Below, in pieces: positions 3,585-32,387 of a DNA stretch of 64,000 nucleotides (within the stretch, counting starts at the first letter, position 1; every line of letters begins with the position of its first letter). The notes beneath the pieces are model-generated. The model worked only from the letters and a program-made list of their open reading frames with translations. It was not told the DNA's origin and did not search any database. The stretch comes from Heterodontus francisci (taxonomy: Eukaryota): assembly GCF_036365525.1 (NCBI RefSeq), contig NC_090399.1, positions 42,750,430-42,814,429 on the forward strand, written 5' to 3'. The position numbers were made by a program, and so were the translations under genes.

Positions 3585-3612
3585 GAGATAAGGAGGCCCA
3601 AAAGAAAAGAAA
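3583..3612 (+). mobile_element. ~30-nt 3' terminal fragment of the RTE element
   Basis: TCGAGATAAGGAGGCCCAAAAGAAAAGAAA is identical to the RTE 3' end at 6916-6945. Confidence 0.95.
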
Positions 3613-4343
3613 ACTCATTCTGGTTCTAATTTCTGCTGCACTCTTCTGCTTATAATTTCTTCCCCTTCCTGTCACACTTTGATTACCATTCACCTCTTCA
3701 TTATCCTGCACCTCTGCTCTCTCGTTTCTTTTTGATTTTTTAAACGTCCCTTCAATTGAACCCTCCCCCCAACTAATTAGTTTATTCACTGACCGAGGGT
3801 TAATGCCCCAGTACCCAGTCTGGCACTGCCCCTCTCACACCCCATCACTCACTGACTGAGGGTTAATGCCCCAGTACCCAGTCTGGCACTGTCCCTCTCA
3901 CAACCCATTCCTCACTGACCGAGGGTTAATGCCCCAATACCCAGTCTGGCACTGTCCCTCTCACAACCCATTACTCACTGACTGAGGGTTAATGCCCCAA
4001 GTACCCAGCTTGGCACTGTCCCTCTCACACCCCATTACTCACTGACTGAGGGTTAATGCCCCAGTCCCCAGTCTGGCACTGTCCCTCTCACAACCCATTC
4101 CTCACTGACCGAGGGTTAATGCCCCAATCCCCAGTCTGGCACTGTCCCTCTCACAACCCATTACTCACTGACTGAGGGTTAATGCCCCAATACCCAGTCT
4201 GGCACTGTCCCTCTCACACCCCATTACTCACTGACTGAGGGTTAATGCCCCAGTACCCAGTCTGGCACTATCCCTGTCACAACCCATTACTCACTGACTG
4301 AGGGTTAATGCCCCAGTACCCAGTCTGGCACTGTCCCTGTCAC
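3613..4343 (+). repeat. 731-bp direct copy of 2179-2909 (CR1 fragment plus ~9 units of the 63-bp minisatellite)
   Basis: Same start (ACTCATTCTGG) and same order of unit variants. The rare variant CCCCAAGTACCCAGCTTGGC recurs at offset 1434. Confidence 0.95.
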
Positions 4344-6945
4344 CAGGTTTCATGGAGGCACCCAAGATCACGTCGTTGGCACCAGCTAGACCTCATTGTC
4401 ACAAGGCGAGCCGCCTTAAACAGTGTTCAAATCACACGCAGCTTCCACAGTGCGGACTGCGACACCGACCACTCCCTGGTGTGCAGCAAGGTTAGACTCA
4501 GACCAAAGAAGTTGCATCATTCCAAGCAGAAGGGCCACCCGCGCATCAACACGAGCAGAATTTCTCACCCACAGCTGTTACAAAAATTTCTAAATTCACT
4601 TGTAACAGCCCTTCAAAACACTCCCACAGGGGATGCTGAGACCAAGTGGGCCCACATCAGAGACGCCATCTATGAGTCAGCTTTGACCACCTACGGCAAA
4701 AGTGCGAAGAGAAATGCAGACTGGTTTCAATCTCATAATGAAGAGCTGGAACCTGTCATAGCCGCTAAGCGCATTGCACTTTTGAACTACAAGAAAGCCC
4801 CCAGCGATTTAACATCCGCAGCACTTAAAGCAGCCAGAAGTACTGCACAAAGAACAGCTAGGCGTTGCGCAAACGACTACTGGCAACACCTATGCAGCCA
4901 TATTCAGCTGGCCTCAGACACCGGAAACATCAGAGGAATGTATGATGGCATGAAGAGAGCTCTTGGGCCAACCATCAAGAAGATCACCCCCCTCAAATCT
5001 AAATCGGGGGACATAATCACTGACCAACGCAAACAGATGGACCGCTGGGTTGAGCACTACCTAGAACTGTACTCCAGGGAGAATGCTGTCACTGAGACTG
5101 CCCTCAATGCAGCCCAGCCTCTACCAGTCATGGATGAGCTGGACATACAGCCAACCAAATCGGAACTCAGTGATGCCATTGATTCCCTAGCCAGCGGAAA
5201 AGCCCCTGGGAAGGACAGCATTACCCCTGAAATAATCAAGAGTGCCAAGCCTGCTATACTCTCAGCACTACATGAACTGCTATGCCTGTGCTGGGACGAG
5301 GGAGCAGTACCCCAGGACATGCGCGATGCCAACATCATCACCCTCTATAAAAACAAAGGTGACCGCGGTGACTGCAACAACTACCGTGGAATCTCCCTGC
5401 TCAGCATAGTGGGGAAAGTCTTTGCTCGAGTCGCTCTGAACAGGCTCCAGAAGCTGGCCGAGCGCGTCTACCCTGAGGCACAGTGTGGCTTTCGTGCAGA
5501 GAGATCGACTATTGACATGCTGTTCTCCCTTCGTCAGATACAGGAGAAATGCCGTGAACAACAGATGCCCCTCTACATTGCTTTCATTGATCTCACCAAA
5601 GCCTTTGACCTCGTCAGCAGACGTGGTCTCTTCAGACTACTAGAAAAGATCGGATGTCCACCAAAGCTACTAAGTATCATCACCTCATTCCATGACAATA
5701 TGAAAGGCACAATTCAACATGGTGGCTCCTCATCAGAGCCCTTTCCTATCCTGAGTGGTGTGAAACAGGGCTGTGTTCTCGCACCCACACTTTTTGGGAT
5801 TTTCTTCTCCCTGCTGCTTTCACATGCGTTCAAATCCTCTGAAGAAGGAATTTTCCTCCACACAAGATCAGGGGGCAGGTTGTTCAACCTTGCCCGTCTA
5901 AGAGCGAAGTCCAAAGTACGGAAAGTCCTCATCAGAGAACTCCTCTTTGCTGACGATGCTGCTTTAACATCTCACACTGAAGAATGCCTGCAGAGTCTCA
6001 TCGACAGGTTTGCGTCTGCCTGCAATGAATTTGGCCTAACCATCAGCCTCAAGAAAACGAACATCATGGGGCAGGATGTCAGAAATGCTCCATCCATCAA
6101 TATTGGCGACCACGCTCTGGAAGTGGTTCAAGAGTTCACCTACCTAGGCTCAACTATCACCAGTAACCTGTCTCTAGATGCAGAAATCAACAAGCGCATG
6201 GGTAAGGCTTCCACTGCTATGTTCAGACTGGCCAAGAGAGTGTGGGAAAATGGCGCACTGACACGGAACACAAAAGTCCGAGTGTATCAGGCCTGTGTCC
6301 TCAGTACCTTGCTCTACGGCAGCGAGGCCTGGACAACGTATGCCAGCCAAGAGCGACGTCTCAATTCATTCCATCTTCGCTGCCTTCGGAGAATACTTGG
6401 CATCAGGTGGCAGGACTATATCTCCAACACAGAAGTCCTTGAAGCGGCCAACATCCCCAGCTTATACACACTACTGAGTCAGCGGCGCTTGAGATGGCTT
6501 GGCCATGTGAGCCGCATGGAAGATGGCAGGATCCCCAAAGACACATTGTACAGCGAGCTCGCCACTGGTATCAGACCCACCGGCCGTCCATGTCTCCGTT
6601 ATAAAGACGTCTGCAAACGCGACATGAAATCGTGTGACATTGATCACAAGTCGTGGGAGTCAGTTGCCAGCATTCGCCAGAGCTGGCGGGCAGCCATAAA
6701 GACAGGGCTAAATTGTGGCGAGTCGAAGAGACTTAGTAGTTGGCAGGAAAAAAGACAGAGGCGCAAGGGGAGAGCCAACTGTGCAACAGCCCCAACAAAC
6801 AAATTTCTCTGCAGCACCTGTGGAAGAGCCTGTCACTCCAGAATTGGCCTTTATAGCCACTCCAGGCGCTGCTTCACAAACCACTGACCACCTCCAGGCG
6901 CGTATCCATTGTCTCTCGAGATAAGGAGGCCCAAAAGAAAAGAAA
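4335..6945 (+). mobile_element. RTE-clade LINE, 5'-truncated and young
   Basis: Starts inside the endonuclease domain (HQVSWRHPRS..QLD..SADCDTDH). Has a short 3' UTR and an (AAAAG)n tail. Confidence 0.95.
4344..6887 (+). CDS. RTE ORF: endonuclease C-terminus, reverse transcriptase and C-terminal C2H2-type zinc finger; uninterrupted but 5'-truncated
   Basis: No internal stops. Motifs NYRGISLL, FIDLTKAFD, GVKQGCVLAP, LLFADD, FTYLGS and CSTCGRACHSRIGLYSH. Confidence 0.93.
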   Translation, partial: QVSWRHPRSRRWHQLDLIVTRRAALNSVQITRSFHSADCDTDHSLVCSKVRLRPKKLHHSKQKGHPRINTSRISHPQLLQKFLNSLVTALQNTPTGDAETKWAHIRDAIYESALTTYGKSAKRNADWFQSHNEELEPVIAAKRIALLNYKKAPSDLTSAALKAARSTAQRTARRCANDYWQHLCSHIQLASDTGNIRGMYDGMKRALGPTIKKITPLKSKSGDIITDQRKQMDRWVEHYLELYSRENAVTETALNAAQPLPVMDELDIQPTKSELSDAIDSLASGKAPGKDSITPEIIKSAKPAILSALHELLCLCWDEGAVPQDMRDANIITLYKNKGDRGDCNNYRGISLLSIVGKVFARVALNRLQKLAERVYPEAQCGFRAERSTIDMLFSLRQIQEKCREQQMPLYIAFIDLTKAFDLVSRRGLFRLLEKIGCPPKLLSIITSFHDNMKGTIQHGGSSSEPFPILSGVKQGCVLAPTLFGIFFSLLLSHAFKSSEEGIFLHTRSGGRLFNLARLRAKSKVRKVLIRELLFADDAALTSHTEECLQSLIDRFASACNEFGLTISLKKTNIMGQDVRNAPSINIGDHALEVVQEFTYLGSTITSNLSLDAEINKRMGKASTAMFRLAKRVWENGALTRNTKVRVYQACVLSTLLYGSEAWTTYASQERRLNSFHLRCLRRILGIRWQDYISNTEVLEAANIPSLYTLLSQRRLRWLGHVSRMEDGRIPKDTLYSELATGIRPTGRPCLRYKDVCKRDMKSCDIDHKSWESVASIRQSWRAAIKTGLNCGESKRLSSWQEKRQRRKGRANCATAPTNKFLCSTCGRACHSRIGLYSHSRRCFTNH

Positions 6946-8572
6946 ACTCATTCTGGTTCTAATTTCTGCTGCACTCTTCTGCTTATAATTTCTTCCCCTT
7001 CCTGTCACACTTTGATTACCATTCACCTCTTCATTATCCTGCACCTCTGCTCTCTCGTTTCTTTTTGATTTTTTAAACGTCCCTTCAATTGAACCCTCCC
7101 CCCAACTAATTAGTTTATTCACTGACCGAGGGTTAATGCCCCAGTACCCAGTCTGGCACTGCCCCTCTCACACCCCATCACTCACTGACTGAGGGTTAAT
7201 GCCCCAGTACCCAGTCTGGCACTGTCCCTCTCACAACCCATTCCTCACTGACCGAGGGTTAATGCCCCAATACCCAGTCTGGCACTGTCCCTCTCACAAC
7301 CCATTACTCACTGACTGAGGGTTAATGCCCCAAGTACCCAGCTTGGCACTGTCCCTCTCACACCCCATTACTCACTGACTGAGGGTTAATGCCCCAGTCC
7401 CCAGTCTGGCACTGTCCCTCTCACAACCCATTCCTCACTGACCGAGGGTTAATGCCCCAATCCCCAGTCTGGCACTGTCCCTCTCACAACCCATTACTCA
7501 CTGACTGAGGGTTAATGCCCCAATACCCAGTCTGGCACTGTCCCTCTCACACCCCATTACTCACTGACTGAGGGTTAATGCCCCAGTACCCAGTCTGGCA
7601 CTATCCCTGTCACAACCCATTACTCACTGACTGAGGGTTAATGCCCCAGTACCCAGTCTGGCACTGTCCCTGTCACAACCCATTACTCACTGACTGAGGG
7701 TTAATGCCCCAGTACCCAGTCTGGCACTGTCCCTCTCACACCCCATCACTCACTGACTGAGGGTTAATGCCCCAATACCCAGTCTGGCACTGTCCCTCTC
7801 ACACCCCATTACTCACTGACTGAGGGTTAATGCCCCAGTACCCAGTCTGGCACTGTCCCTCTCACAACCCATTCCTCACTGACCGAGGGTTAATGCCCCA
7901 GTACCCAGTCTGGCACTATCCCTGTCACAACCCATTACTCACTGACTGAGGGTTAATGCCCCAGTACCCAGTCTGGCACTATCCCTGTCACAACCCATTT
8001 CTCACTGACTGAGGGTTAATGCCCCAGTACCCAGTCTGGCACTTTCCCTCTCACACCCCATCACTCACTGACTGAGGGTTAATGCCCCAATACCCAGTCT
8101 GGCACTGCCCCTCTCACACCCCATTACTCACTGATTGAGGGTTAATGCCCCAGTACCCAGTCTGGCACTGTCCCTCTCACAACCCATTCCTCACTGACCG
8201 AGGGTTAATGCCCCAGTACCCAGTCTGGCACTTTCCCTCTCACACCCCATCACTCACTGACTGAGGGTTAATGCCCCAATACCCAGTCTGGCACTGTCCC
8301 TCTCACACCCCATTACTCACTGACTGAGGGTTAATGCCCCAGTACCCAGTCTGGCACTATCCCTGTCACAACCCATTACTCACTGACTGAGGGTTAATGC
8401 CCCAGTACCCAGTCTGGCACTATCCCTGTCACAACCCATTACTCACTGACTGAGGGTTAATGCCCCAGTACCCAGTCTGGCACTGTCCCTCTCACACCCC
8501 ATTACTCACTGACTGAGGGTTAATGCCCCAATACCCAGTTTGGCACTGTCCCTCTCACAACCCATTACTCAC
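6946..8572 (+). repeat. Third copy of the target segment: CR1 fragment plus 63-bp minisatellite (~23 units, ~7119-8572)
   Basis: 6946-8351 matches 2179-3584 at offset 4767, including the rare variants at 7328 and 8131. Confidence 0.95.
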
Positions 8573-8806: not shown

Positions 8807-8953
8807 ATGAATCATCAGGCTCCAAGCAGAATAGTTCCAGACAGATTGACTCAGGAGCCCCAACAAAATAACAAACAAGACCGCATTTGTTGACAACGCG
8901 AACGGTAGGTGGCGCTGTTTTGGCACATGCGCAAATACAGCATGTATATACAG

Positions 8954-10010: not shown

Positions 10011-11127
10011 CACAGTTGAATATCTGAAGTGCAGTTGCAAAGTCGGGGAAATAGCATGCAAATCAAAGCCTCAACAATTCTGGGGTTAATTATTGAAAAG
10101 TTTTATTAAGTTCATTAAGTATCCGAGGAACTGCTGTGCATGGATACATGAGTGTTGTGTCCAGCATTCCCGTTAGACAGACAGGCCGAGTCTCTGCTAT
10201 GCACAGCTAAAGAGATTGTTCCTGGAGAGCCTTGTGGTGAATAAACGCTTGGCTCTCTATTCCACTACTGTATTGTCCATGTGAAGAAGGCAAAGTCACA
10301 AGAGTCTGAGCTCAGTCTATTCTTGGTGAATGTTCCCCAAGCGCATCCCAATGTGCATTCCCAATTCATCCATAAATGCAATGATCCTTTCCACATCGTG
10401 ACGAGCTCTGCAGCATGATCCAGTTGTCTTCGTTGCTTGAATGCTGACCTTAAGTCTCAAGGATTGTTTTCTCGACGGCATGTTTTACATGAAAAGAAAT
10501 AAAGCAAATCAGAGTCAGAGCTTGCCTCCCTCCATCCACTGAAATGACTGTTGTGCACACCTTTTTAAGTTCTGCAGTGAAGGCACCAATTGATAACGTC
10601 GCCAATGAAGCACTTATTACCCACCTCAGATGCAGGAATCAGCACATCCTTGCGTCATCTCCTGCACTGCCTCCTTTGCTTGAATGTCGTCCTTAAGTGT
10701 CAAGGATTGTTTTCTCAAGGGCACATTTTACACGAAAGAAAATAAGGAAAGAACATCAGTGTCAGAGCTTCCCTCCCTCCAATGAAATTACTGTTGAGCA
10801 TGCTCTGTGTTCTGCGGTGAAGGCATGTACTGATAACACCGCCAATGAATCACTTAGTACCCACCTCAGCTGTAGGAGGCAGGATGATGTAACTGCCCCT
10901 ATCTCGTGATGGTTCAATGCTGCTCTCAGGGAAAACATGAATGATGTGAGGGTGCTGGAAAAAGAAGCACATTTCTTTTGGACTATGAACATAAAGCAGG
11001 CCATTTAGCCCAGCTGTTCCCTGCTAGTGGTTATGTTACTCATGCGTCTTCCCATCCATTCCCATTTAATCCTGCCTACTACTATCAGCATCATCTTCCA
11101 TTTCTTTCACTCTTATCTACCTTTGCC

Positions 11128-14100
11128 TCAAAGCAACACTGAGGATGGAGAATGGTGTGGCTGCACTCCCACCTCACCAGTTGTGTACGCAGCAAGAGCA
11201 TTCACATTTGTGCTACCACTGGACACGACATGCTTGTTTCTTTTAGTGCTCAGTCCCTTCTTGCTGAATGTTCCAGAACTGCTTGAACCGTTTGGATGCC
11301 CTCTCTGCTTGACAGGCAGCAGCTGGCAATTGCGGAGCCTCACAAGGCTCTGCATGGTTGTTTCAAAGGCAGATGGGGAAACAGGTGGATGTGTGTCCAT
11401 GTGCACTGCTCTGATGGGTGCAGGAACAGGTGGCACTGTGTCCACGTGCACTGCTCTGACGGGTGCAGGAACAGGTGGCTGAGTGCCCACGTGCACTGCT
11501 CTGATGGGTGCAGGAACAGGTGGCAGTGTGTCCATGTGCACTGCTCTGATGGGTGCAGGAACAGGTGGCAGTGTGTCCATGTGCACTGCTCTGATGGGTG
11601 CAGGAACAGGTGGCTGTGTGTCCATGTGCACTGCTCTGATGGGTGCAGGAACAGGTGGCACTGTGTCCATGTGCACTGCTCGGATGGGTGCAGGAACAGT
11701 TGACTGTGTGTGCATGTGCACTGCTCTGATGGGTGCAGGAACAGGTGGCTGTGTGTCCATGTGCACTGCTCTGATGGGTGCAGGAACAGTTGACTGTGTG
11801 TGCATGTGCACTGCTCTGATGGGTGCAGGAACAGGTGGCTGTGTGTCCATGTGCACTGCTCTGATGGGTGCAGGAACAGGTGACTGTGTGTCCATGAGCA
11901 CTGCTCTGATGGGTGCAGGAACAGGTGACTGTGTGTCCATGTGCACTGCTCTGATGTGAGCAGGAACAGGTGACTGTGTGTCCATGTGCACTGCTCTGAT
12001 GGGTGCAGGAACAGCTGACTGTGTGTCCATGTGCACTGCTCTGATGGGTGCAGGAACAGGTGGCTGTGTGTCCATGTGCACTGCTCGGATGGGTGCAGGA
12101 ACAGGTGGCTGTGTGTCCATGTGCACTGCGCTGATGGGTGCAGGAACAGGTGATTCTGTGTCCATGTGCACTGCTCTGATGGGTGCAGGAACGGGTGATT
12201 GTGTGTCCATGTGCACTGCTCTGATGGGTGCAGGAACGGGTGATTGTGTGTCCATGTGCACTGCTCTGATGGGTGCAGGAACAGGTGGCTGTGTGTCCAT
12301 GTGCACTGCTCTGATGGGTGCAGGAACAGGTGGCAGTGTGTCCATGTGCACTGCTCTGATGGGTGCAGGAACAGGTGGCAGTGTGTCCATGTGCACTGCT
12401 CTGATGGGTGCAGGAACAGGTGGCTGTGTGTCCATGTGCACTGCTCTGATGGGTGCAGGAACAGGTGGCACTGTGTCCATGTGCACTGCTCGGATGGGTG
12501 CAGGAACAGTTGACTGTGTGTGCATGTGCACTGCTCTGATGGGTGCAGGAACAGGTGGCTGTGTGTCCATGTGCACTGCTCTGATGGGTGCAGGAACAGT
12601 TGACTGTGTGTGCATGTGCACTGCTCTGATGGGTGCAGGAACAGGTGGCTGTGTGTCCATGTGCACTGCTCTGATGGGTGCAGGAACAGGTGACTGTGTG
12701 TCCATGAGCACTGCTCTGATGGGTGCAGGAACAGGTGACTGTGTGTCCATGTGCACTGCTCTGATGTGAGCAGGAACAGGTGACTGTGTGTCCATGTGCA
12801 CTGCTCTGATGGGTGCAGGAACAGCTGACTGTGTGTCCATGTGCACTGCTCTGATGGGTGCAGGAACAGGTGGCTGTGTGTCCATGTGCACTGCTCGGAT
12901 GGGTGCAGGAACAGGTGGCTGTGTGTCCATGTGCACTGCGCTGATGGGTGCAGGAACAGGTGATTCTGTGTCCATGTGCACTGCTCTGATGGGTGCAGGA
13001 ACGGGTGATTGTGTGTCCATGTGCACTGCTCTGATGGGTGCAGGAACAGGTGGCTGTGTGTCCATGTGCACTGCTCTGATGGGTGCAGGAACAGGTGATT
13101 GTGTGTCCATGTGCACTGCTCTGATGGGTGCAGGAACAGGTGGCTGTGTGTCCATGTGCACTGCGCTGATGGGTGCAGGAACATGTGGCTGTGTGTCCAT
13201 GTGCACTGCTCTGATGGGTGCACGAACAGGTGGCAGTATGTCCATGTGCACTGCACGGATGCGTGCAGGAACAGCTGGCTGCGTGTGAACGTGCACAGCT
13301 CTGATGGGTGCAGGAACAGGTGGCTGTGTGTCCATGTGCACTGCTCTGATAGGTGCAGGAACAGGTGGCACTGTGTCAATGTGCAGTGCTCTGATGGGTG
13401 CAGGAACAGTTGACTGTGTGTCCATGTGCACTGCTCTGATGGGTGCAGGAACAGGTGACTGTGTGGCCATGTGCACTGCTCTGATGGGTGCAGGAACAGG
13501 TGGCTATGTGTCCATGTGCACTGCTCTGATGGGTGCATGCAGGTGGCACTGTGTCCCTGTGCACTGCTCTGATGGGTGCAGGAACAGGTGGCTGTGTGTC
13601 CATGTGCACTGCTCGGATGGGTGCAGGAACAGGTGGCTGTGTGTCCATGTGCACTGCTCGGATGGGTGCAGGAACAGGTGGCTGTGTGTCCATGTGCACT
13701 GCTCTGATGGGTGCAGGAACAGGTGGCTGAGTGTCCACGTGCACTGCTCTGATGGGTGCAGGAACAGGTGATTGTGTGTCCATGTGCACTGCTCTGATGG
13801 GTGCAGGAACAGGTGGCTGTGTGTCCATGTGCACTGCTCTGATGGGTGCAGGAACAGGTGGCTGTGTGTCCATGTGCACTGCTCGGATGGGTGCAGGAAC
13901 AGGTGGCTGTGTGTCCATGTGCACTGCTCTGATGGGTGCAGGAACAGGTGGCTGAGTGTCCACGTGCACTGCTCTGATGGGTGCAGGAACAGGTGATTGT
14001 GTGTCCATGTGCACTGCTCTGATGGGTGCAGGAACAGGTGGCTGTGTGTCCATGTGCACTGCTCTGATGGGTGCAGGAACAGGTGATTGTGTGTCCATGT

Positions 14101-17100
14101 GCACTGCTCGGATGGGTGCAGGAACAGGTGATTGTGTGTCCATGTGCACTGCTCTGATGGTTGCAGGAACAGGTGGCAGTATGTCCATGTGCACTGCTCT
14201 GATGGTTGCAGGAACAGGTGACACTGTGTCCATGTGCACTGCACGGATGGGTGCAGGAACAGGTGGCTGCGTGTGAACGTGCACAGCTCTGATGGGTGCA
14301 GGAACAGGTGGCTGTGTGTCCATGTGCACTGCTCTGATGGGTGCAGGAACAGGTGGCACTGTGTCCATGTGCACTGCTCTGATGGGTGCAGGAACAGTTG
14401 ACTGTGTGTCCATGTGCACTGCTCTGATGGGTGCAGGAACAGTTGACTGTGTGTCCATGTGCACTGCTCTGATGGTTGCAGGAACAGGTGGCTGTGTGTC
14501 AATGTGCACTGCTCTGATGGGTGCAGGAACAGGTGGCTGTGTGTCCATGTGCACTGCTCTGATGGGTGCAGGAACAGTTGACTGTGTGTCCATGTGCACT
14601 GCTCTGATGGGTGCAGGAACAGTTGACTGTGTGTCCATGTGCACTGCTCTGATGGGTGCAGGAACAGGTGACTGTGTGTCCATGTGCACTGCTCTGATGG
14701 GTGCAGGAACAGTTGACTGTGTGTCCATGTGCACTGCTCTGATGGGTGCAGGAACAGATGGCTGAGTGTCCACGTGCACTGCTCTGATGGGTGCAGGAAC
14801 AGATGGCTGAGTGTCCACGTGCAATGCTCATTTGGGTGCAGGAACAGGTGACTGTGTGTCCATGTGCATTGCTCTCATGGGTGCAGGAACAAGAGACTGT
14901 GTGTCCATGTGCACTGCTCTGATGGGTGCAGGAACAGTTGACTGTGTGTCCATGTGCACTGCTCTGATGGGTGCAGGAACAGATGGCTGAGTGTCCATGT
15001 GCACTGCTCTGATGGGTGCAGGAACAGTTGACTGTGTGTCCATGTGCACTGCTCTGATGGGTGCAGGAACAGGTGACTGTGTGTCCATGTGCACTGCTCT
15101 GATGGGTGCAGGAACAATTGACTGTGTGTCCATGTGCACTGCTCTGATGGGTGCAGGAACAGATGGCTGAGTGTCCACGTGCACTGCTCTGATGGGTGCA
15201 GGAACAGATGGCTGAGTGTCCACGTGCAATGCTCATTTGGGTGCAGGAACAGGTGGCTGTGTGTCCATGTGCAATGCTCTGATGGGTGCAGGAACAGGTG
15301 GCAGTGTGTCCATGTGCATTGCTCTCATGGGTGCAGGAACAGGAGACTGTGTGTCCATGTGCATTGCTCTCATGGGTGCAGGAACAGGTGACTGTGTGTC
15401 CATGTGCAATGCTCTGATGGGTGCAGGAACAGGTGGCTGTGTGTCCATGTGCAATGCTCATTTGGGTGCAGGAACAGGTGACTGTGTGTCCATGTGCATT
15501 GCTCTCATGGGTGCAGGAACAGGTGACTGTGTGTCCATGTGCACTGCTCTGATGGGTGCAGGAACAGGTGGCTGTGTGTCCGTGTGCAATGCTCATTTGG
15601 GTGCAGGAACAGGTGACTGTGTGTCCATGTGCACTGTTCTGATGGGTGCAGGAACAGGTGACTGTGTGTCCATGTGCACTGCTCTGATGGGTGCAGGAAC
15701 AGGTGACTGTGTGTCCATGTGCACTGCTCTGATGGTTGCAGGAACAGGTGATTGTGTGTCCATGTGCACTGCTCGGATGGGTGCAGGAACAGGTGGCAGT
15801 GTGTCAATGTGCACTGCTCTGATGGGTGCAGGAACAGGTGGCTGTGTGTCCATGTGCACTGCTCGGATGGGTGCAGGAATAGGTGGCACTGTGTCCATGT
15901 GCACTGCTCTGATGGGTGCAGGAACATGTGGCTGTGTGTCCATGTGCAATGCTCTGATGGTTGCAGGAACAGGTGGCACTGTGTCCACGTACACTGCTCG
16001 GATGGGTGCAGGAACAGGTGGCTGTGTGTCCATGTGCACTGCTCTGATGGTTGCAGGAACAGGTGGCACTGTGTCCATGTGCACTGCTCTGATGGGTGCA
16101 GGAACAGGTGGCAGTGTGTCCATGTGCACTGCTCTGATGGGTGCAGGAACAGGTGGCACTGTGTCCATGTGCAGTGTTCGGATGGGTGCAGGAACAGGTG
16201 GCAGTGTGTCCATGTGCACTGCTCTCATGGGTGCAGGAACAGGTGGTAGTGTGTCAATGTGCACCGTTCTGATGGGTGCAGGAACAGTTGACTGTGTGTC
16301 ATGTGCACTGCTCTGATGTGTGCAGGAACAGGTGACTGTTTGTCCATGTGCACTGCTCTGATGGGTGCAGGAACAGGTGACTGTGTGTCCATGTGCACTG
16401 CTCGGATGGGTGCAGGAACAGGTGACTGTGTGTCCATGTGCACTGCTCTGATGGGTGCAGGAACAGGTGACTGTGTGTCCACTTGCACTGCTCGAATGGG
16501 TGCAGGAACAGGTGGCTGTGTGTCCACTTGCACTGCTCTGATGGGTGCAGGAACAGGTGACTGTGTGTCCACTTGCACTGCTCGAATGGGTGCAGGAACA
16601 GGTGGCTGTGTGTCCACTTGCACTGCAGTGATGGGTGCAGGAACAGGTGACTGTGTGTCCACTTGCACTGCTCGAATGGGTGCAGGAACAGGTGGCTGTG
16701 TGTCCATGTGCACTGCTCTGATGTGTGCAGGAACAGGTGGCTGTGTGTCCATGTGCACTGCTCTGATGTGTGCAGGAACAGGTGGCTGTGTGTCCATGTG
16801 CACTGCTCTGATGTGTGCAGGAGCAGGTGGTTGTGTGTCCATGTGCACTGCTCTGATGTGTGCAGGAACAGCTGGCTGTGTGTCCATGTGCACTGCTCGG
16901 ATGGGTGCAGGAACAGGTGACTGTGTGTCCATGTGCACTGCTCGGATGGGTGCAGGAACAGGTGGCTGTGTGTCCATGTGCACTGCTCTGATGGGTGCAG
17001 GAACAGGTGGCTGTGTGTCTATGTGCACTGCTCTGATGGGTGCAGGAACAGGTGACTGTGTGTCCATGTGCACTGCTCTGATGGGTGCAGGAACAGTTGA

Positions 17101-20100
17101 CTGTGTGTCCATGTGCACTGCTCTGATGGGTGCAGGAACATTTGGCAGTGTGTCAATGTGCAGTGCTCTGATGGGTGCAGGAACAGTTGACTGTGTGTCC
17201 ATGTGCACTGCTCTGATGGGTGCAGGAACACGTGACTGTGTGTCCATGTGCACTGCTCGGATGGGTGCAGGAACAGGTGGCTGTGTGTCCATGTGCACTG
17301 CTCGGATGGGTGCAGGAACAGGTGGCTGTGTGTCCATGTGCACTGCTCTGATGGGTGCAGGAACAGGTGGCTGAGTGTCCACGTGCACTGCTCGGATGGG
17401 TGCAGGAACAGGTGATTGTGTGACCATGTGCACTGCTCTGATGGGTGCAGGATCAGGTGGCTGTGTGTCCATGTGCACTGCTCTGATGGGTGCAGGAACA
17501 GGTGATTGTGTGTCCATGTGCACTGCTCTGATGGTTGCAGGAACAGGTGGCACTGTGTCCATGTGCACTGCATGGATGGGTGCAGGAACAGGTGGCTGCG
17601 TGTGAACGTGCACAGCTCTGATGGGTGCAGGAACAGGTGGCTGTGTGTCAATGTGCACTGCTCTGATGGGTGCAGGAACAGGTGGCTGTGTGTCCATGTG
17701 CACTGCTCTGATGGGTGCAGTAACAGGTGGCTGTGTGTCCATGTGCACTGCTCTGATGGGTGCACGAACAGGTGGCACTGTGTCCCTGTGCACTGCTCGG
17801 ATGGGTGCAGGAACAGGTGGCTGTGTGTCCATGTGCACTGCTCGGATGGGTGCAGGAACAGGTGGCTGTGTGTCCATGTGCACTGCTCTGATGGGTGCAG
17901 GAACAGGTGGCTGAGTGTTCACGTGCACTGCTCGGATGGGTGCAGGAACAGGTGATTGTGTGACCATGTGCACTGCTCTGATGGGTGCAGGAACAGGTGG
18001 CTGTGTGTCCATGTGCACTGCTCTGATGGGTGCAGGAACAGGTGATTGTGTGTCCATGTGCACTGCTCTGATGGTTGCAGGAACAGGTGGCACTGTGTCC
18101 ATGTGCACTGCATGGATGGGTGCAGGAACAGGTGGCTGCGTGTGAACGTGCACAGCTCTGATGGGTGCAGGAACAGGTGGCTGTGTGTCAATGTGCACTG
18201 CTCTGATGGGTGCAGGAACAGGTGGCTGTGTGTCCATGTGCACTGCTCTGATGGGTGCAGGAACAGGTGACTGTGTGTCAATGTGCACTGCTCTGATGGG
18301 TGCAGGAACAGGTGGCTGTGTGTCAATGTGCACTGCTCTGATGGGTGCAGGAACAGTTGACTGTGTGTCCATGTGCATTGCTCTGATGGGTGCAGGAACA
18401 GTTGACTGTGTGTCCATGTGCACTGCTCTGATGGGTGCAGGAACAGGTGGCTGTGTGTCAATGTGCACTGCTCTGATGGGTGCAGGAACAGTTGACTGTG
18501 TGTCCATGTGCACTGCTCTGATGGGTGCAGGAACAGTTGACTGTGTGTCCATGTGCACTGCTCTGATGGGTGCAGGAACAGGTGGCTGTGTGGCCATGTG
18601 CACTGCTCTGATGGGTGCAGGAACAGTTGACTGTGTGTCAATGTGCACTGCTCTGATGGGTGCAGGAACAGTTGACTGTGTGTCAATGTGCACTGCTCTG
18701 ATGGGTGCAGGAACAGTTGACTGTGTGTCAATGTGCACTGCTCTGATGGGTGCAGGAACAGTTGACTGTTTGTCAATGTGCACTGCTCTGATGGGTGCAG
18801 GAACAGGTGATTGTGTGTCCATGTGCACTGCTCTGATGGTTGCAGGAACAGGTGGCACTGTGTCCATGTGCACTGCATGGATGGGTGCAGGAACAGGTGG
18901 CTGCGTGTGAACGTGCACAGCTCTGATGGGTGCAGGAACAGGTGGCTGTGTGTCAATGTGCACTGCTCTGATGGGTGCAGGAACAGGTGGCTGTGTGTCC
19001 ATGTGCACTGCTCTGATGGGTGCAGGAACAGGTGACTGTGTGTCAATGTGCACTGCTCTGATGGGTGCAGGAACAGGTGGCTGTGTGTCAATGTGCACTG
19101 CTCTGATGGGTGCAGGAACAGTTGACTGTGTGTCCATGTGCATTGCTCTGATGGGTGCAGGAACAGTTGACTGTGTGTCCATGTGCACTGCTCTGATGGG
19201 TGCAGGAACAGGTGGCTGTGTGTCAATGTGCACTGCTCTGATGGGTGCAGGAACAGTTGACTGTGTGTCCATGTGCACTGCTCTGATGGGTGCAGGAACA
19301 GTTGACTGTGTGTCCATGTGCACTGCTCTGATGGGTGCAGGAACAGGTGGCTGTGTGGCCATGTGCACTGCTCTGATGGGTGCAGGAACAGTTGACTGTG
19401 TGTCAATGTGCACTGCTCTGATGGGTGCAGGAACAGTTGACTGTGTGTCAATGTGCACTGCTCTGATGGGTGCAGGAACAGTTGACTGTGTGTCAATGTG
19501 CACTGCTCTGATGGGTGCAGGAACAGTTGACTGTTTGTCAATGTGCACTGCTCTGATGGGTGCACGAACAGGTGGCTGAGTGTCCATGTGCACTGCTCTG
19601 ATGGGTGCAGGAACAGGTGACTGTGTGTCCACGTGCACTGCTCTGTTGGGTGCAGGAACAGGTGGCAGGTTGTCCATGTGCACTGCTCTGATGGGTGCAG
19701 GAACAGGTGGCAGTGTGTCCATGTGCACTGCTCTGATGGGTGCAGGAACAGGTGGCTGTGTGTCCATGTGCACTGCTCTGATGGGTGCAGGAACAGGTGG
19801 ATGTGTGTCCATGTGCACTGCTCTGATGGGTGCAGGAACAGGTGATTGTGTGTCCATGTGCACTGCTCTGATGGGTGCAGGAACAGGTGGCTGTGTGTCC
19901 ATGTGCACTGCTCTGATGGATGCAGGAACAGGTGATTATGTGTCCATGTGCACTGCTCTGATGGTTGCAGGAACAGGTGGCACTGTGTCCATGTGCACTG
20001 CATGGATGGGTGCAGGAACAGGTGGCTGCGTGTGAACGTGCACAGCTCTGATGGGTGCAGGAACAGGTGGCTGTGTGTCCATGTGCACAGCTCTGATGGG

Positions 20101-23100
20101 TGCAGGAACAGTTGACTGTGTGTCCATGTGCACTGCTCTGATGGGTGCAGGAACAGTTGACTGTGTGTCCATGTGCACTGCTCTGATGGTTGCAGGAACA
20201 GGTGGCACTGTGTCCATGTGCACTGCTCTGATGGGTGCAGGAACAGGTGGCTGCGTGTGAACGTGCACAGCTCTGATGGGTGCAGGAACAGGTGACTGTG
20301 TGTCCATGTGCACTGCTCGGATGGGTGCAGGAACACGTGACTGTGTGTCCATGTGCACTGCTCTGATGGGTGCAGGAACAGGTGACTGTGTGTCCACTTG
20401 CACTGCTCGAATGGGTGCAGGAACAGGTGGCTGTGTGTCCACTTGCACTGCTCTGATGGGTGCAGGAACAGGTGACTGTGTGTCCACTTGCACTGCTCTG
20501 ATGGGTGCAGGAACAGGTGATTGTGTGTCCATGTGCACTGCTCTGATGGGTGCAGGAACAGGTGGCTGTGTGTCCATGTGCACTGCTCTGATGGGTGCAG
20601 GAACAGTTGATTGTGTGTCCATGTGCACTGCTCGGATGGGTGCAGGAACAGGTGATTGTGTGTCCATGTGCACTGCTCTGATGGTTGCAGGAACAGGTGG
20701 CAGTATGTCCATGTGCACTGCTCTGATGGTTGCAGGAACAGGTGACACTGTGTCCATGTGCACTGCACGGATGGGTGCAGGAACAGGTGGCTGCGTGTGA
20801 ACGTGCACAGCTCTGATGGGTGCAGGAGCAGGTGGCTGTGTGTCCATGTGCACTGCTCTGATGGGTGCAGGAACAGGTGGCACTGTGTCAATGTGCACTG
20901 CTCTGATGGGTGCAGGAACAGGTGGCTGCGTGTGAACGTGCACAGCTCTGATGGGTGCAGGAACAGGTGGCTGTGTGTCCATGTGCACTGCTCTGATGGG
21001 TGCAGGAACAGGTGGCACTGTGTCCATGTGCACTGCTCTGATGGGTGCAGGAACAGTTGACTGTGTGTCCATGTGCACTGCTCTGATGGGTGCAGGAACA
21101 GTTGACTGTGTGTCCATGTGCACTGCTCTGATGGTTGCAGGAACAGGTGGCTGTGTGTCAATGTGCACTGCTCTCATGGGTGCAGGAACAGGTGGCTGTG
21201 TGTCCATGTGCACTGCTCTGATGGGTGCAGGAACAGTTGACTGTGTGTCCATGTGCACTGCTCTGATGGGTGCAGGAACAGTTGACTGTGTGTCCATGTG
21301 CACTGCTCTGATGGGTGCAGGAACAGGTGGCTGTGTGTCAATGTGCACTGCTCTCATGGGTGCAGGAACAGGTGGCTGTGTGTCAATGTGCACCGTTCTG
21401 ATGGGTGCAGGAACAGTTGACTGTGTGTCATGTGCACTGCTCTGATGTGTGCAGGAACAGGTGGCTGTGTGTCCACTTGCACTGCTCCGATGGGTGCAGG
21501 AACAGGTGACTGTTTGTCCATGTGCACTGCTCTGATGGGTGCAGGAACAGGTGACTGTGTGTCCATGTGCACTGCTCGGATGGGTGCAGGAACAGGTGAC
21601 TGTGTGTCCATGTGCACTGCTCTGATGGGTGCAGGAACAGGTGACTGTGTGTCCACTTGCACTGCTCGAATGGGTGCAGGAACAGGTGGCTGTGTGTCCA
21701 CTTGCACTGCTCTGATGGGTGCAGGAACAGGTGACTGTGTGTCCACTTGCACTGCTCGAATGGGTGCAGGAACAGGTGGCTGTGTGTCCACTTGCACTGC
21801 TCTGATGGGTGCAGGAACAGGTGACTGTGTGTCCACTTGCACTGCTCGAATGGGTGCAGGAACAGGTGGCTGTGTGTCCATGTGCACTGCTCTGATGTGT
21901 GCAGGAACAGGTGGCTGTGTGTCCATGTGCACTGCTCTGATGTGTGCAGGAACAGCTGGTTGTGTGTCCATGTGCACTGCTCGGATGGGTGCAGGAACAG
22001 GTGACTGTGTGTCCATGTGCACTGCTCGGATGGGTGCAGGAACAGGTGGCTGTGTGTCCATGTGCACTGCTCTGATGGGTGCAGGAACAGGTGGCTGTGT
22101 GTCTATGTGCACTGCTCTGATGGGTGCAGGAACAGGTGACTGTGTGTCCATGTGCACTGCTCTGATGGGTGCAGGAACAGTTGACTGTGTGTCCATGTGC
22201 ACTGCTCGGATGGGTGCAGGAACAGGTGACTGTGTGTCCATGTGCACTGCTCGGATGGGTGCAGGAACAGGTGACTGTGTGTCCATGTGCACTGCTCTGA
22301 TGGTTGCAGGAACAGGTGGCAGTATGTCCATGTGCACTGCTCTGATGGTTGCAGGAACAGGTGACACTGTGTCCATGTGCACTGCACGGATGGGTGCAGG
22401 AACAGGTGGCTGCGTGTGAACGTGCACAGCTCTGATGGGTGCAGGAACAGGTGGCTGTTTGTCCATGTGCACTGCTCTGATGGGTGCAGGAACAGGTGGC
22501 ACTGTGTCAATGTGCACTGCTCTGATGCGTGCAGGAACAGTTGACTGTGTGTCCATGTGCACTGCTCTGATGGGTGCAGGAACATTTGGCAGTGTGTCAA
22601 TGTGCAGTGCTCTGATGGGTGCAGGAACAGTTGACTGTGTGTCCATGTGCACTGCTCTGATGGGTGCAGGAACACGTGACTGTGTGTCCATGTGCACTGC
22701 TCTGATGGGTGCAGGAACAGGTGGCTGTGTGTCCTTGTGCACTGCTCTGATGGGTGCACGAACAGGTGGCACTGTGTCCCTGTGCACTGCTCGGATGGGT
22801 GCAGGAACAGGTGGCTGTCTGTCCATGTGCACTGCTCGGATGGGTGCAGGAACAGGTGGCTGTGTGTCCATGTGCACTGCTCTGATGGGTGCAGGAACAG
22901 GTGATTGTGTGTCCATGTGCACTGCTCTGATGGTTGCAGGAACAGGTGGCACTGTGTCCATGTGCACTGCATGGATGGGTGCAGGAACAGGTGGCTGCGT
23001 GTGAACGTGCACAGCTCTGATGGGTGCAGGAACAGGTGGCTGTGTGTCAATGTGCACTGCTCTGATGGGTGCAGGAACAGGTGGCTGTGTGTCCATGTGC

Positions 23101-26100
23101 ACTGCTCTGATGGGTGCAGGAACAGGTGACTGTGTGTCAATGTGCACTGCTCTGATGGGTGCAGGAACAGGTGGCTGTGTGTCAATGTGCACTGCTCTGA
23201 TGGGTGCAGGAACAGTTGACTGTGTGTCCATGTGCATTGCTCTGATGGGTGCAGGAACAGGTGACTGTGTGTCCATGTGCACTGCTCTGATGGGTGCAGG
23301 AACAGGTGGCTGTGTGTCAATGTGCACTGCTCTGATGGGTGCAGGAACAGTTGACTGTGTGTCCATGTGCACTGCTCTGATGGGTGCAGGAACAGTTGAC
23401 TGTGTGTCCATGTGCACTGCTCTGATGGGTGCAGGAACAGGTGGCTGTGTGTCCATGTGCACTGCTCTGATGGGTGCAGGAACAGGTGACTGTGTGTCCA
23501 CTTGCACTGCTCGAATGGGTGCAGGAACAGGTGGCTGTGTGTCCATGTGCACTGCTCTGATGTGTGCAGGAACAGGTGGCTGTGTGTCCATGTGCACTGC
23601 TCTGATGTGTGCAGGAACAGGTGGCTGTGTGTCCATGTGCACTGCTCTGATGTGTGCAGGAACAGCTGGCTGTGTGTCCATGTGCACTGCTCGGATGGGT
23701 GCAGGAACAGGTGGCTGTGTGTCCATGTGCACTGCTCTGATGGGTGCAGGAACAGGTGGCTGTGTGTCTATGTGCACTGCTCTGATGGGTGCAGGAACAG
23801 GTGACTGTGTGTCCATGTGCACTGCTCTGATGGGTGCAGGAACAGGTGACTGTGTGTCCATGTGCACTGCTTGGATGGGTGCAGGAACAGGTGGCTCTGT
23901 GTCCACTTGCACTGCTCGGATGGGTGCAGGAACAGGTGGCTGTGTAATTGAGCAACAAGGAGACGGTACCATATTTGAGGGAAGTGGAGCTTTGTACAGG
24001 CAGGTGTCTGTATGGTCCATCAGATCATTAGGCCTGGGGGTGAAACACTCAGGGTCCTTGGATTGTGGCACGTGACTGATGTCCAGCGCTTGGCCACCTC
24101 CATCCAAGGTGCTTCTTAGCAATTGTTGGGCATGGTAAATGGCTCCATCTCATCAGCCAGTCCTTGCTGCCAGCGGAGAGTCTGTTGCCGCAGCCAGTCC
24201 AGTTTCCTCATGACTGCTGCCGTTCCACTCTGCAGAACGGCCTGTTGTAGCTGGTACAATTGATCTGAAAGCAAGCGGTATTTTTCATTGTAGCTGAAGG
24301 GCCTTGGCTGTTCCTCTGTAATCACAATGGCAGCAGCCATGCCTGTCGTCGTTGGTGTCTGCGATGCACGCCAGCGGCAGGTGGGGGCAAGCCTGTCCAA
24401 TAGCATGTTTGCAGGGCAACAAAGTCTGAATGAAGAAGATGCAGCTGCGGGTAGCCTGGCCATCATGTATCTGCAGTGTGTACTGTTTGGCACCAGAAAT
24501 CACAGTCACTGTGCCTTCATCCTGCTCCTTGACATGTACTCGCTGAATGTGGCTATGATCCTGATGCATCAGCTTCATAACATGACTGGTCAATCCCGTG
24601 TAAAATGATTGTAGATCTGCTGGTGCCTCTGCGATGCGCTTGAAAGAGGCTCCCTGCAGGAATGTGTAATAGGCACTCTCCCAATCCGGGACACTATTGT
24701 GGAAGATCAGCGCTGAGATGCATTCCTTCATGGATGAGGAGGAGTGAAGCAGGTGCTTTATCTTGCCACTCTCTGACTCAATGCGATTGTTGGTGTTGTT
24801 CCCAAACGTTAGGACTTTACCGCGTGAACATGCTGCCCACATCTCCTTCTGTGGAATCCAGTTTGTCAGCAGGTAGTCCTGCAGGGGTGGGTAGAGGTGT
24901 CCAATCCTTTCTACACAACTTGTGATCTTCTCCTGCAAATGTGCATGAACCATTTCCTTGCAGATCATAAACAACTGATCCCTCAGTTCACCATTCAGTG
25001 GGTCGCTGCTGATCTTCCTCCTCAAGCTCTGCATCACATGGAACTGACAGAGGAGAACCGTTGCAGCTGGGAGATGCTTCCTGATCGCATTGATCTCATT
25101 GATGTCTTTATCCACAATGGCTGATCTCACGCGGCAGGCGCTGGATCCCATGAAATCGACAAAATCACCCACAATCTCGTCCAGCATCTGAGACGTCTCA
25201 TTCCTCACCATGGCATAGAACACAGCCCTGCCCCTACCAGCATTGTCCTGCACCATCACCTGGTACAGAGGGTAGCCGTATTTGTTCACCTTGTACGTTC
25301 CGTCCATGAACAGCAGTTCAGGAAAGGCCTGCATGTGGGCCTTCATGGCTGGTGTCATGAAGGCAATATAGAGGATGTTGCTTCCCTGCAGGCCAACCCG
25401 TACTGCAGCCCCGTCCTGCTGAATCTTCTCCAGCGTATCACACAGCGCATCCATGCTGTCATCCCCTGTTTTGAGCCGGGATTTTACATTTCTAATGTCA
25501 CTAAGGGTTATGGTCTTATTGAATGAACGCGCGATATAATCCTTCAGCTGTTTGTTCCCAGCCTGCAGCTTGACCAACTCTTCTACCTTCTGCCTTTCAT
25601 CGTGGTTCAGTTGTCGTCTCCTTGCATAGAAGCGTAAACATTCTGGATGCAAAACATGACCGGTATGTACAAGATGGTAGGAGCTGACACACAGTTTGTT
25701 CTTGCTCGTATTGAATTTCACACTGATGAAGACCTCACAGCCCAGGGCGAGATACCTGAAAAGTTACACAGACATTCAATGAGCACGCCCCACGTGCCCT
25801 CACTAAAACGCCAGCCATCCCCAGGTGTGTTGCTGGCAGCAGTTTACATGTGCACCATGACAAGGTCCCAAAATCTGGTGCGCACCTGTTTCGCCATTGG
25901 TCTATCCAGGAAATCACAACAAAGGCAGTCCGTAGACACGGGGGCGGTATGCGCGTGGCTTTGTGGGCACAGGATCTCACTGACGAGATGTATTGATACT
26001 GCAAATCGAATCTTGGTTCAATGGGCATCAAGGAACAGCTTTACAGGACTGACAAGCTACACAAGTGTAAATGTAGTGACCGCAGCACCTACCTCTGATT

Positions 26101-26364
26101 CGGTCTCACTCCAGTAGAATGGATGCGTGGCTGCCCATAGTGTACACAGCACAGCCTCACTGAGGCATAAGCACAACAGCAAAGTACATTTAAATAGCAT
26201 TGTTAACATAGTGAAACATAACAAGGCACATCACAGGATGTGCCTGCAGACCATGCTACCTGTTGAAACATCTCAGGTTTACTGCTGAAGTCGTCATAAC
26301 TCTCGAACTCCTGGGTTGTGAAGGTGGCAAGGAACTGCTCTGTGGAATCTACTGACGTTGCCAT
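11128..26364 (-). pseudogene. Decayed MULE (FAR1-DDE-SWIM, ZSWIM3-like) transposase gene interrupted by the 45-bp array
   Basis: Probable ATG at 26364 (MATSVDST..FESYDDF) with donor CAG|GTAGCA at 26260. The core 24285-25721 has FMDGTYK (D), IVDKD (D), CQFH, TNNRIES (E) and a degenerate SWIM (CIFFIQTLLPCKH). It continues through frameshifts to the post-SWIM helix SYNEKYR..W and, after the array, to PVKQRGHPNGS. Confidence 0.85.
11379..23945. repeat. 45-bp minisatellite, ~12.6 kb, ~279 units
   Basis: Unit ACAGGTGGCTGTGTGTCCATGTGCACTGCTCTGATGGGTGCAGGA. I found only three indel-bearing units (~13537, ~16300, ~21430). Confidence 0.99.
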
Positions 26365-26525
26365 GATCGAAGTTTGAGGTTCAGGAAGGCTATTAAGGGA
26401 CCACACGGGAAACATGAGATGAGATAAGAAATACAGAATGCACTCCATTGAAACGTTACAAAAACGAACGTGACCGTTTAGATGGTAGGTTGTTCGCTGG
26501 ACTGCAGCACAGGTACTGCCTGCAC

Positions 26526-26670
26526 ACAGCAACTCACAACAGGAACTGGAGCACATGCGGTGCCCCAGACAATGGAAATGCTTTCAGAGCAGCTTGCAAC
26601 AGGGACTGGAGCACATGCGGTGCCCCAGACAATGGAAATGTTTTCAAAGCAACTTACAACGGCAGAGCAA
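26526..26670. repeat. 60-bp tandem duplication (~2.4 copies)
   Basis: ACTGGAGCACATGCGGTGCCCCAGACAATGGAAATG occurs at 26545 and 26605. Confidence 0.9.
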
Positions 26671-26789
26671 CTTACCTTGGAACAATCTCCTGTGTCTAAT
26701 AAAAATGAAGCAAATCTCCAAAACGACTAAATAATTCAGATAAAATGCGAGAAAATGCCCGACGAAACCTCTCCTCCATCCACTTTCAA

Positions 26790-27023
26790 AAAGTCGCGCC
26801 GAAGCTTTGACGCATGCGTGAATATCCGAAGATGGACGCATGCGCAGAGGACAACCTGGCACGTTGCCCGAGGAAGACGTCGTAACGCGATGATGTCATC
26901 TGCGCATGCGCAAAGCGGCTCTGGCAAGCCGGACCGCAGCGCATGCGCAGAGAGCAGGAGACCGTGTGCGCATGTGCGCACCGCGGCGCAGCCTGATGAC
27001 GTCAGCGCTGACGAAGCGTTGCC
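26790..27023 (-). promoter_or_regulatory. CpG-rich putative transposase promoter at the element end
   Basis: Perfect NRF1 palindrome TGCGCATGCGCA at 26901-26912 plus several variants, and a CRE TGACGTCA at 26997-27004. Lies upstream of the transposase ATG. Confidence 0.6.
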
Positions 27024-27055
27024 ATGAATCACTTTGAACAAACATCATGAACTAT

Positions 27056-27098
27056 CTAATCAGAGAAATGCTGATTGTTACATCACCAGTTGCCAGGG
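27056..27098 (-). promoter_or_regulatory. MHC-type X1-X2-Y module (RFX / CREB-ATF / NF-Y), with a one-mismatch Y box
   Basis: Minus strand reads CCCTGGCAACTGGTGATGTAACAATCAGCATTTCTCTGATTAG: X1 CCTGGCAAC, X2 TGATGTAA, Y CTGATTAG. The Y box starts 35 nt after the first C, the same spacing as in HLA-DRA as I recall it. Confidence 0.7.
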
Positions 27099-27159
27099 AG
27101 GATAAATATTTGACACAGAAAGTGACAGAGGGAAGAGTGTTATGAACAGGATGGGGTCA

Positions 27160-29209: not shown

Positions 29210-29775
29210 TGGGCTCATCTTTTATCCTCCCCGCCCGTCTCACTGTGCTCTCACTCTCTTGGCTACTTTTTTATCCTCCCCGCCAGTCTCACTGTGTTCT
29301 CACTCTCTCAGCTGCTCTTTTATCTTTCTCGCCGGTCTCACTGTGCTCTCACTCTCTCGGCTGCTCTTTTATCCTCCTCGCCGATCTCACTGGGCTCTCA
29401 CTCTCCGGGCTGCTCTTTTATCCTCCCCGCCAGTCTCACTGTGCTCTCACTCTCCGAGCTGCTCTTTAATCCCCCCCCCCGCCGGTCTCACTGTGCTTCC
29501 ACTCTCTCAGCTGCTCTTTTGTCCTCCCTGCCGGGCTCGATGTGCTCTCTCTCTCCGAACTGCTCTTTATCCTCCTCGCCGGTCTCACTGCGCTCTCACT
29601 CTCCGAACTGCTCTTTTATCCTCCCCACCAGTCTCACCGTGCTCCCACTTTCTTGGCTGCTCATTTATCCTCCTCGCAGGTCTCACTGTGCTCTCACTCT
29701 CCGGGCTGCTCTTTTAACCTCCCCACCGGTCTCACTGTGTTCTCACTCTCCGAGCTGCTCTTTTATCCTCCCCGC
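29210..29775. repeat. 49-bp minisatellite (~11.5 units)
   Basis: Unit CTGCTCTTTTATCCTCCCCGCCGGTCTCACTGTGCTCTCACTCTCCGAG, with starts at 29312, 29361 and 29410. Confidence 0.92.
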
Positions 29776-31997: not shown

Positions 31998-32387
31998 GGC
32001 AGCAAGCAAACAACTATATGGGTGGGCCCAGGGGGAGCAACCAAGGAGTGGGAGGGGATAGTGTACAGGGTCAAAGTGTAAAGTCTGTAGTTTGAACACA
32101 GTATTTCAGGGCAATGAAATCCCTGAAAGAACTTTCTTCACAGTCTCATTCCCAGCCTTTACCCCATTCACCCATCACCCCTTTCCCCCCACTCAGTAAT
32201 AAACCCTAATTGTGAAATAAACCACAAACCTGGTAAAATACTGTACCCACAGAAATGTACCGTACATCCAATAATAAACACAACAACCAAAAATATACAG
32301 TGCACTCAGTAATAAACCATACATGCAATTATATATCATAAACCCAGTGATTAAACCGCACACCCAGTGACAAACTGCACCCTCTCC

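Follow-up and report, generated by a model that had tools for sequence, protein, structure and literature searches.

A 45-bp minisatellite of the horn shark, likely derived from the coding linker of a MULE transposase

This analysis concerns a stretch of 64,000 nucleotides from the horn shark, Heterodontus francisci (contig NC_090399.1, positions 42,750,430 to 42,814,429; hereafter the window), in which a degraded gene for the transposase of a Mutator-like element (MULE) harbours a long tandem array with a 45-bp unit. The most probable account (probability about 0.8) is that this non-coding minisatellite stems from the duplication of 15 codons in the transposase linker of a shark MULE and reached 279 units by unequal exchange. 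A derivation from the transposon's own coding sequence is likely because the number of units at the very same place is none, one or three in related copies.

The array and the transposase gene around it

Tandem Repeats Finder reports a 45-bp tandem repeat of 279.3 copies at 11380-23945, with 92% matches, in agreement with the roughly 279 units counted in an earlier reading made from the letters alone (the sequence-only reading). Splitting of the array on the minus strand detected 278 units, representing 102 distinct sequences, with a mean divergence from the consensus of 5.2%. The units follow one another at 45 bp in 274 of 277 steps, at 44 bp in two and at 88 bp in one. The array is oriented like the coding strand (minus) of the MULE/ZSWIM3-like transposase gene, and its unit translates on that strand as MDTQPPVPAPIRAVH. 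The entry junction reads PCCSI-TQPPVPAP, the exit junction reads MDTHPPVSPSAFETT...KQRGHPNGS, and the last unit passes in phase into unique coding sequence; unit and junction translations had been read correctly before. The three indels noticed earlier were recovered (-1 at ~21432, -1 at ~16303 and -2 at ~13560). Since they sum to -4 bp, the array is entered and left in different absolute frames, and the identity of frame formerly proposed for the two sides is true of the repeat-frame junctions only. The "few stops" amount to six in-frame stops: the four K-stop units (15628, 15493, 15268 and 14863) and the stop at ~19938 were found again, while a sixth, at ~13506, had been missed. The 45-mer has no second site in the window, the best match outside the array being 16 nt long (E 2.1).

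The transposase gene lies on the minus strand, with its three exons (26364-26260; a remnant at 26169-26093; 25755 onward) within 26364-11128. Its structure was established by comparison with related protein models (P numbers) and with contigs from 4 of 24 listed runs (X1, X5, X11 and X15, from three organisms), compared over 23817-27150. X1 and X15 are DNA runs, whereas X5 and X11 are RNA by guess only, no RNA entry being on record. The parts of the gene are as follows.

26260..26364, minus strand: transposase exon 1, with the ATG at 26364 and a GT donor at 26259; N-terminus like those of P0001 and P0026
26093..26169, minus strand: 3' half of exon 2, left as a remnant, from comparison with relatives
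25756..26092, minus strand: intron 2, 337 bp, GT..AG; the 337-bp skip is also seen in X11 contigs
24285..25755, minus strand: main transposase open reading frame (ORF) with the RNase H/MULE domain (Pfam PF10551, PF21056)
24105..24400, minus strand: post-SWIM helix with the EKYR motif, read in a shifted frame, from reading-frame comparison and run contigs
23946..24104, minus strand: unique linker 5' of the array (DGGG...MDHT...PCCSI), aligned to P0001, P0003, P0007 and P0026
11380..23945, minus strand: 45-bp tandem array of 279.3 units, from repeat finding, unit splitting and block comparison
11128..11379, minus strand: C-terminal tail after the array (SAFETT...KQRGHPNGS...), with the stop at 11128-11130, recognized from the relatives' tails

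The ORF at 25763-24285 scores 66 bits against the Pfam MULE domain PF10551 (cutoff 27.6), which indicates a MULE-type DDE transposase, and 99 bits against PF21056 (ZSWIM1/3 RNase H-like). The catalytic residues are kept (D ~25304, D ~25112 and E ~24779) in the motifs DGTY, DKD and IESE, at ORF residues 152, 216 and 327. Judged by its predicted transposase, the element is a MULE. The SWIM finger of the window copy is damaged and without a Pfam match; in relatives it scores 17.5 (P0010; cutoff 19.6) and 20.1 (the distant P0004). No Pfam match to a PHD finger was found in the window tail, P0001, P0010 or P0026. The C-terminal tail at 11128-11379 shares 43-46% identity with residues 718-827 of P0001 and 230-370 of P0007.

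Related copies and the origin of the unit

A protein search for relatives of the transposase gave nine matches at E values up to 1e-20 among 4,379 candidates. Among them are four H. francisci models, to which P0010, a cluster member, adds a fifth; no two of the five share a scaffold. P0010 is identical to the window copy at 424 of 453 core residues. Three of the five (P0001, P0003 and P0007) extend as far as the array site. P0001 lacks a full 45-bp unit and has a single ancestral motif between the same flanks. P0007 has one diverged in-frame unit (score 50 at residue 293, median -1), which is continuous with both flanks and has a degenerate unit before it. P0003 has three near-identical units (scores 93, 93 and 64), located in the +1 frame behind a frameshift and followed by the same exit as in the window copy, ending CRAL. 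In P0005 (great white) and P0026 (basking shark) a single motif is present at the site, and their linker carries a separate 36-residue duplication nearby. The unit counts at this one site are therefore 0, 1, 3 and 279. By tree path distance, P0010 is nearest to the window copy, followed by P0003, P0007 and P0001, indicating that unit number tracks relatedness to the window copy.

An origin of the unit in the linker that follows the post-SWIM helix and precedes the QRG-x-x-x-G motif is supported by these predicted proteins, as the sequence-only reading had supposed. That reading had suggested counting the 45-mers in other copies, and had named copies devoid of any 45-mer at the site, with the array elsewhere between unrelated flanks, as the outcome that would contradict it; the protein models show none, one and three units there, and the contrary outcome was not observed. 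At the protein level, the first step of the process is seen, from one motif in the more remote relatives (P0001, P0005 and P0026) to one full plus one degenerate unit in a nearer copy (P0007), and on to three in a still nearer one (P0003). The linker, presumably tolerant of change, would have been the site of the first 15-codon duplication.

Could a 45-bp satellite that already existed have been inserted or converted into the linker, the short arrays being its contracted remnants? This appears improbable. Summed contig depth, which is not a copy number and is taken as a hint only, places the 45-mer far above its flank in X1 (491,587 on the bin with the last array units versus ~7,000 on the linker) and in X15 (9,972 on the repeat versus ~30 on the flank), an excess that free-standing arrays could yield too, and the window is rich in unrelated satellites (35, 49 and 63 bp). 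However, an inserted satellite is at odds with the single diverged unit of P0007, in frame and joined to both flanks, with the motif kept once in distant relatives, and with an array whose last unit passes in phase into coding sequence. Moreover, contigs running into unlike sequence have a share of 0 in X1 and 0.01 in X15, although the shortness of the repeat contigs limits this.

Some of the relatives have features of their own. Four proteins from Carcharodon and Cetorhinus (P0005, P0025, P0026 and P0027) are without the whole RNase H domain and retain the N-terminal domain and the SWIM region; this conserved, transposase-derived gene model is a candidate domesticated gene in lamniform sharks. 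P0001 (855 aa) is a full-length open frame in which Gly replaces the first catalytic Asp and Ala the catalytic Glu, and it has a linker insert in common with the lamniform proteins. On account of these substitutions and of the common insert, P0001 is possibly a domesticated, catalytically dead copy. P0004 (813 aa) is a full-length relative, 38% identical, in which an RGRPK motif is present; its C-terminus, rich in Cys and His, resembles a PHD finger by eye and has no PHD Pfam match. It may link the shark family to Rehavkus-type elements, which are discussed below.

Decay of the window copy and growth of the array

The window copy carries several lesions. The acceptor and ~30 codons of exon 2, present in P0001, P0002 and P0010, are gone, and a loose end of run X5 at 26169 encodes the missing residues. 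The first SWIM Cys has become Arg (compared with P0010 and P0001). A loss of 29 nt at ~24397, in the SWIM finger, shifts the frame; contigs of X5, X11 and X15 retain these 29 nt, and X1 shows loose ends. The premature stop at 24116-24118 is a sense codon in all four runs, which also have the base that the window copy lacks at 24105. Translation of the main ORF comes to an out-of-frame stop at 24285-24287, 340 bp short of the array. The post-SWIM helix is read in a frame that differs from the array-entry frame and stops at 24118, while the array-entry frame itself has upstream stops at 24287, 24155 and 24152. Read from the linker into the array, the frame runs through 56 units and a frameshift before closing at 21356. 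Hence the product of about 4,200 Pro/His/Thr-rich residues, once proposed for the array, cannot be made by the window copy: translation ends before the array, and the entry frame closes within it. No frame is open from the gene start through the array, given the stop at 24285-24287, the net loss of 4 bp and the six stops. The array site is homologous to a coding linker, yet it lies outside any open transposase frame. Of the former placement of the array inside the transposase frame, the homologous position is retained and the open frame is not.

The array was enlarged through block duplication. Two adjacent duplications, of 17 and 16 units, show zero mismatches; blocks of 9-12 units recur 91-145 units away, with 0.2-1% mismatch, and block duplications reach 17-18 units. 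Both -1 deletions have the same rare diagnostic neighbours in homologous blocks 5.1 kb apart, indicating a single frameshift event that was copied over 5.1 kb as the array grew. One nonsense allele occupies four units.

Selection was examined on 275 units, with alleles counted once each on the consensus background and with the exclusion of 3 of the 278 units (an edge unit and two indel-shifted ones) and of the unit with the 2-nt loss. Among the 135 possible single-base alleles 62 were seen. In the transposase frame, synonymous alleles number 12 of 62 against a transition-matched expectation of 15.9 (p for at least as many, 0.96), giving no sign of purifying selection on the units. The stop avoidance that the sequence-only reading had thought worth looking for in the transposase frame, relative to the other five, did not emerge: neither stop avoidance nor synonymous excess is significant in any of the six frames, the lowest p being 0.066 (synonymous excess in an antisense frame). 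The variants of the unit thus show no coding constraint, and the later expansion ignored the reading frame.

These data bear on a second alternative, namely that the array was a variable number tandem repeat (VNTR) tolerated or selected as coding sequence in active copies, where it formed a long Pro/Thr/His-rich spacer, and that decay came later. This is less probable still. The unit length is a multiple of three, and the linker does tolerate in-frame change, as seen in the P0007 unit and in the 36-residue duplication of P0005 and P0026. Contigs of X11, a run only guessed to be RNA, show the family's intron 2 spliced out. The first 56 units are without a stop in the entry frame, and only three indels and six in-frame stops are found across 279 units. 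Such paucity of stops is nevertheless expected, since the transposase frame offers only two one-step routes to a stop among the 135 changes (versus seven and four in the other sense frames), and both stop alleles occur. Lack of a synonymous excess, amplification of frameshift and nonsense alleles, and the position of P0003's three units behind a frameshift also speak against a coding VNTR. Two protein searches point the same way. A weak search for longer homologues (861-2455 aa) gave two matches among 3,777 candidates, both from oomycetes, and no shark protein. HMMER, run on 1.84 billion representatives, gave 12 matches, none with several in-frame units in one protein. P0007 is the only related one among them; on inspection the other 11 were rejected as unrelated Pro-rich or repetitive proteins. 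A further query of 10 units plus tail gave none among 116 candidates; it missed P0007 and is therefore insensitive.

That the array, though real, has a length inflated by mis-assembly is very improbable: the two adjacent perfect duplications of 17 and 16 units could suggest it, but ~245 units would remain without both, the 102 distinct units and the many blocks diverged by 0.2-1.3% at long offsets reflect a real history, and independent runs likewise contain the unit in high abundance.

Under the linker-duplication account, a few near-identical units would first have been formed, after which slippage together with unequal crossover or conversion would have amplified blocks of 5-18 units; blocks of this size are themselves seen in the array. 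Expansion would have been free in copies that no longer needed the frame. This is consistent with a window copy that cannot translate its array and with frame-breaking mutations that were amplified along with it. The earlier suggestion that the expansion followed inactivation is the best fit to the data.

Element ends, dispersal and known systems

Three further features concern the extent of the element; no strand is assigned to them.

26729..27064: 5' region of the element, containing GCGCATGCGC and TGACGTCA motifs; its likely end is marked by the drop in depth after 27064
26528..26660: 60-bp tandem repeat of 2.2 copies, upstream of the ATG and within the element, from repeat finding
10425..11127: 3' region of the element, containing two copies of a ~243-bp repeat; loose ends of X5 and X11 tie ~10930-10958 to the element

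Summed depth in X1 is 700-2,100 on the catalytic core and 13,700-18,400 at 26729-27064. Beyond 27064 it falls from 18,379 to 40, and in the other three runs to 0, so the 5' end of the element likely lies near this position. The GCGCATGCGC and TGACGTCA motifs cluster at 26836-27020, and similar single motifs occur near 8925 and 9435; those at the 5' end resemble NRF1 and CRE promoter sites. The 60-bp repeat reaches a summed depth of 163,000-190,000 in X1, about 10 times that of its flank, and may be a second satellite carried by the element. Downstream of the transposase stop, at 10425-10877, a ~243-bp segment is present twice (78% identical). The 3' end of the element was not located around 10425-11127, and neither the 45-mer nor the 60-mer was found in inverted form at the opposite end.

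The copies are dispersed, as seen from the five H. francisci models on five scaffolds and from 5,041 heterogeneous contigs from X1. In both X5 and X11, deletion joints leading to 26379 leave out almost all of the coding region, and further X1 joints also skip most of it; short sides of 26-29 nt weaken this evidence. A joint at 23842-26585, linking the array to the 60-mer, was not counted; its sides are 18-26 nt long and a short word is common to both units. These data hint that the ends are more abundant than the cores and the 45-mer far more so than its flank, and that internally deleted derivatives and a very abundant 45-mer exist in the reads of three organisms. Non-autonomous derivatives with internal deletions may conceivably retain both ends together with the array region, in which case their mobilization by intact copies would spread the 45-mer. 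The former claim that the transposon is both source and carrier of the satellite thus stands for the source, the role of carrier being hinted at by contig depth and deletion joints.

Several points weigh against the account preferred here. The series of unit numbers was built from predicted proteins, not DNA, and comprises three of five H. francisci models, the closest ones (P0002 and P0010) ending before the site. In P0001, P0005 and P0026 the single motif does not rise above background when scored against the unit (the best scores, 21-23, fall at other places in the protein), and it was located by its flanks alone. Four of the five inner branches of the copy tree are unsupported, and the upstream lesions and early expansion cannot be ordered or dated. 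The sides of the deletion joints are short (18-29 nt at 80% likeness) and flagged unreliable. A search for terminal inverted repeats (TIRs) gave no inverted match above shuffle between the ends (28 versus a mean of 27), with the 3' end unplaced, and a search for target site duplications (TSDs) gave chance matches of 8-11 nt only, none at a plausible end.

The window holds other repeats. An unrelated satellite with a 35-bp unit occupies 32384-39564 (~204 copies) and another, with a 49-bp unit, 29218-29775 (11 copies). In the region 2179-8572, a reverse transcriptase frame of the long interspersed element (LINE) type (4302-6887, 861 aa, RVT_1) lies between 63-bp tandem arrays. The segments 2179-2347 and 6946-7114 are identical, suggesting that the array and its flank were duplicated around the LINE.

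Among known systems, MULEs are described as having a DDE transposase, TIRs or none, and TSDs of 8-11 bp (PMC6446971). The same review lists a "Minisatellite in Cterm" for Rehavkus and, in its Table 1, a minisatellite after the transposase ORF for the aphid Phantom MULEs. In Tribolium Rehavkus, TfSat25 has 2-12 repeats and TCsat12 extends up to 80.5 kb (PMC12581902). Like the shark MULE, Rehavkus has a resident tandem repeat that ranges from a few copies to very long arrays. However, the Rehavkus repeats lie in inverted termini or before the 3' TIR, whereas the shark unit lies in a coding linker and no inverted termini were found; the Rehavkus transposase carries a PHD finger that is not seen in the shark proteins; and the host is Tribolium in one case and a vertebrate in the other. 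As far as its predicted proteins and ends tell, the shark element acts like Rehavkus and fails membership on the PHD finger and foldback ends. In Phantom, too, a minisatellite is tied to the transposase ORF, but it follows the ORF, while the shark array is at a coding-sequence position flanked on either side by coding homology.

Satellites derived from transposable elements are many and mainly of non-coding origin, those derived from ORFs coming from LINEs (PMC9659126, PMC6947457), such as HinfI from CR1 ORF2 and PROsat and Pvc20 from LINE-1 ORF2 (PMC9659126). These share with the shark 45-mer a tandem monomer taken from the coding sequence of a transposable element. They are retrotransposon-derived, whereas the shark array is still within its parent gene and has intermediate copy states. 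With ZSWIM1/ZSWIM3-like proteins (PF21056, PF21599 and PF21600) the shark family shares its domain order (N-terminal domain, RNase H-like MULE domain, helical region, SWIM), and NCBI names the shark copies "ZSWIM3-like". Unlike a single conserved host gene, however, the shark family is dispersed, multi-copy and mostly broken; instead of the single intact orthologous locus of a domesticated ZSWIM3-type gene, private lesions and many paralogous copies were found. Shark genomes are reported to have regions rich in tandem repeats (PMC10620051), and the main text of bioRxiv 10.1101/2021.09.26.461848 makes no mention of sharks. In the literature as available, no paper was found that describes the shark family or derives a satellite from the ORF of a DNA transposase; the family may be listed in Repbase, Dfam or supplementary tables. 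Transposon-derived satellites as such are known, and what is new here is a monomer traced to the coding linker of a transposase, in a shark MULE.

The duplication that founds a satellite is rarely visible. In this case the monomer lies in former coding sequence, so that the codon frame, the flanks and the transposase tree provide an outside clock, and the states of one, few and many units can be ordered along that tree. It can then be asked at what array size a transposon loses its coding capacity, and whether its derivatives carry the array from then on. The evidence also argues for a genuine MULE family with many copies in a shark; a 2019 review held the vertebrate MULEs then in Repbase to be mis-identified (PMC6446971). 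A broader proposal, put forward tentatively and with somewhat more doubt than trust, is that a recently mobile, intron-bearing MULE family of the horn shark made a satellite from 15 of its own codons and is spreading kilobase arrays through the genome on non-autonomous derivatives. If this is true, each step between a single motif and hundreds of units would be recorded in a single genome.

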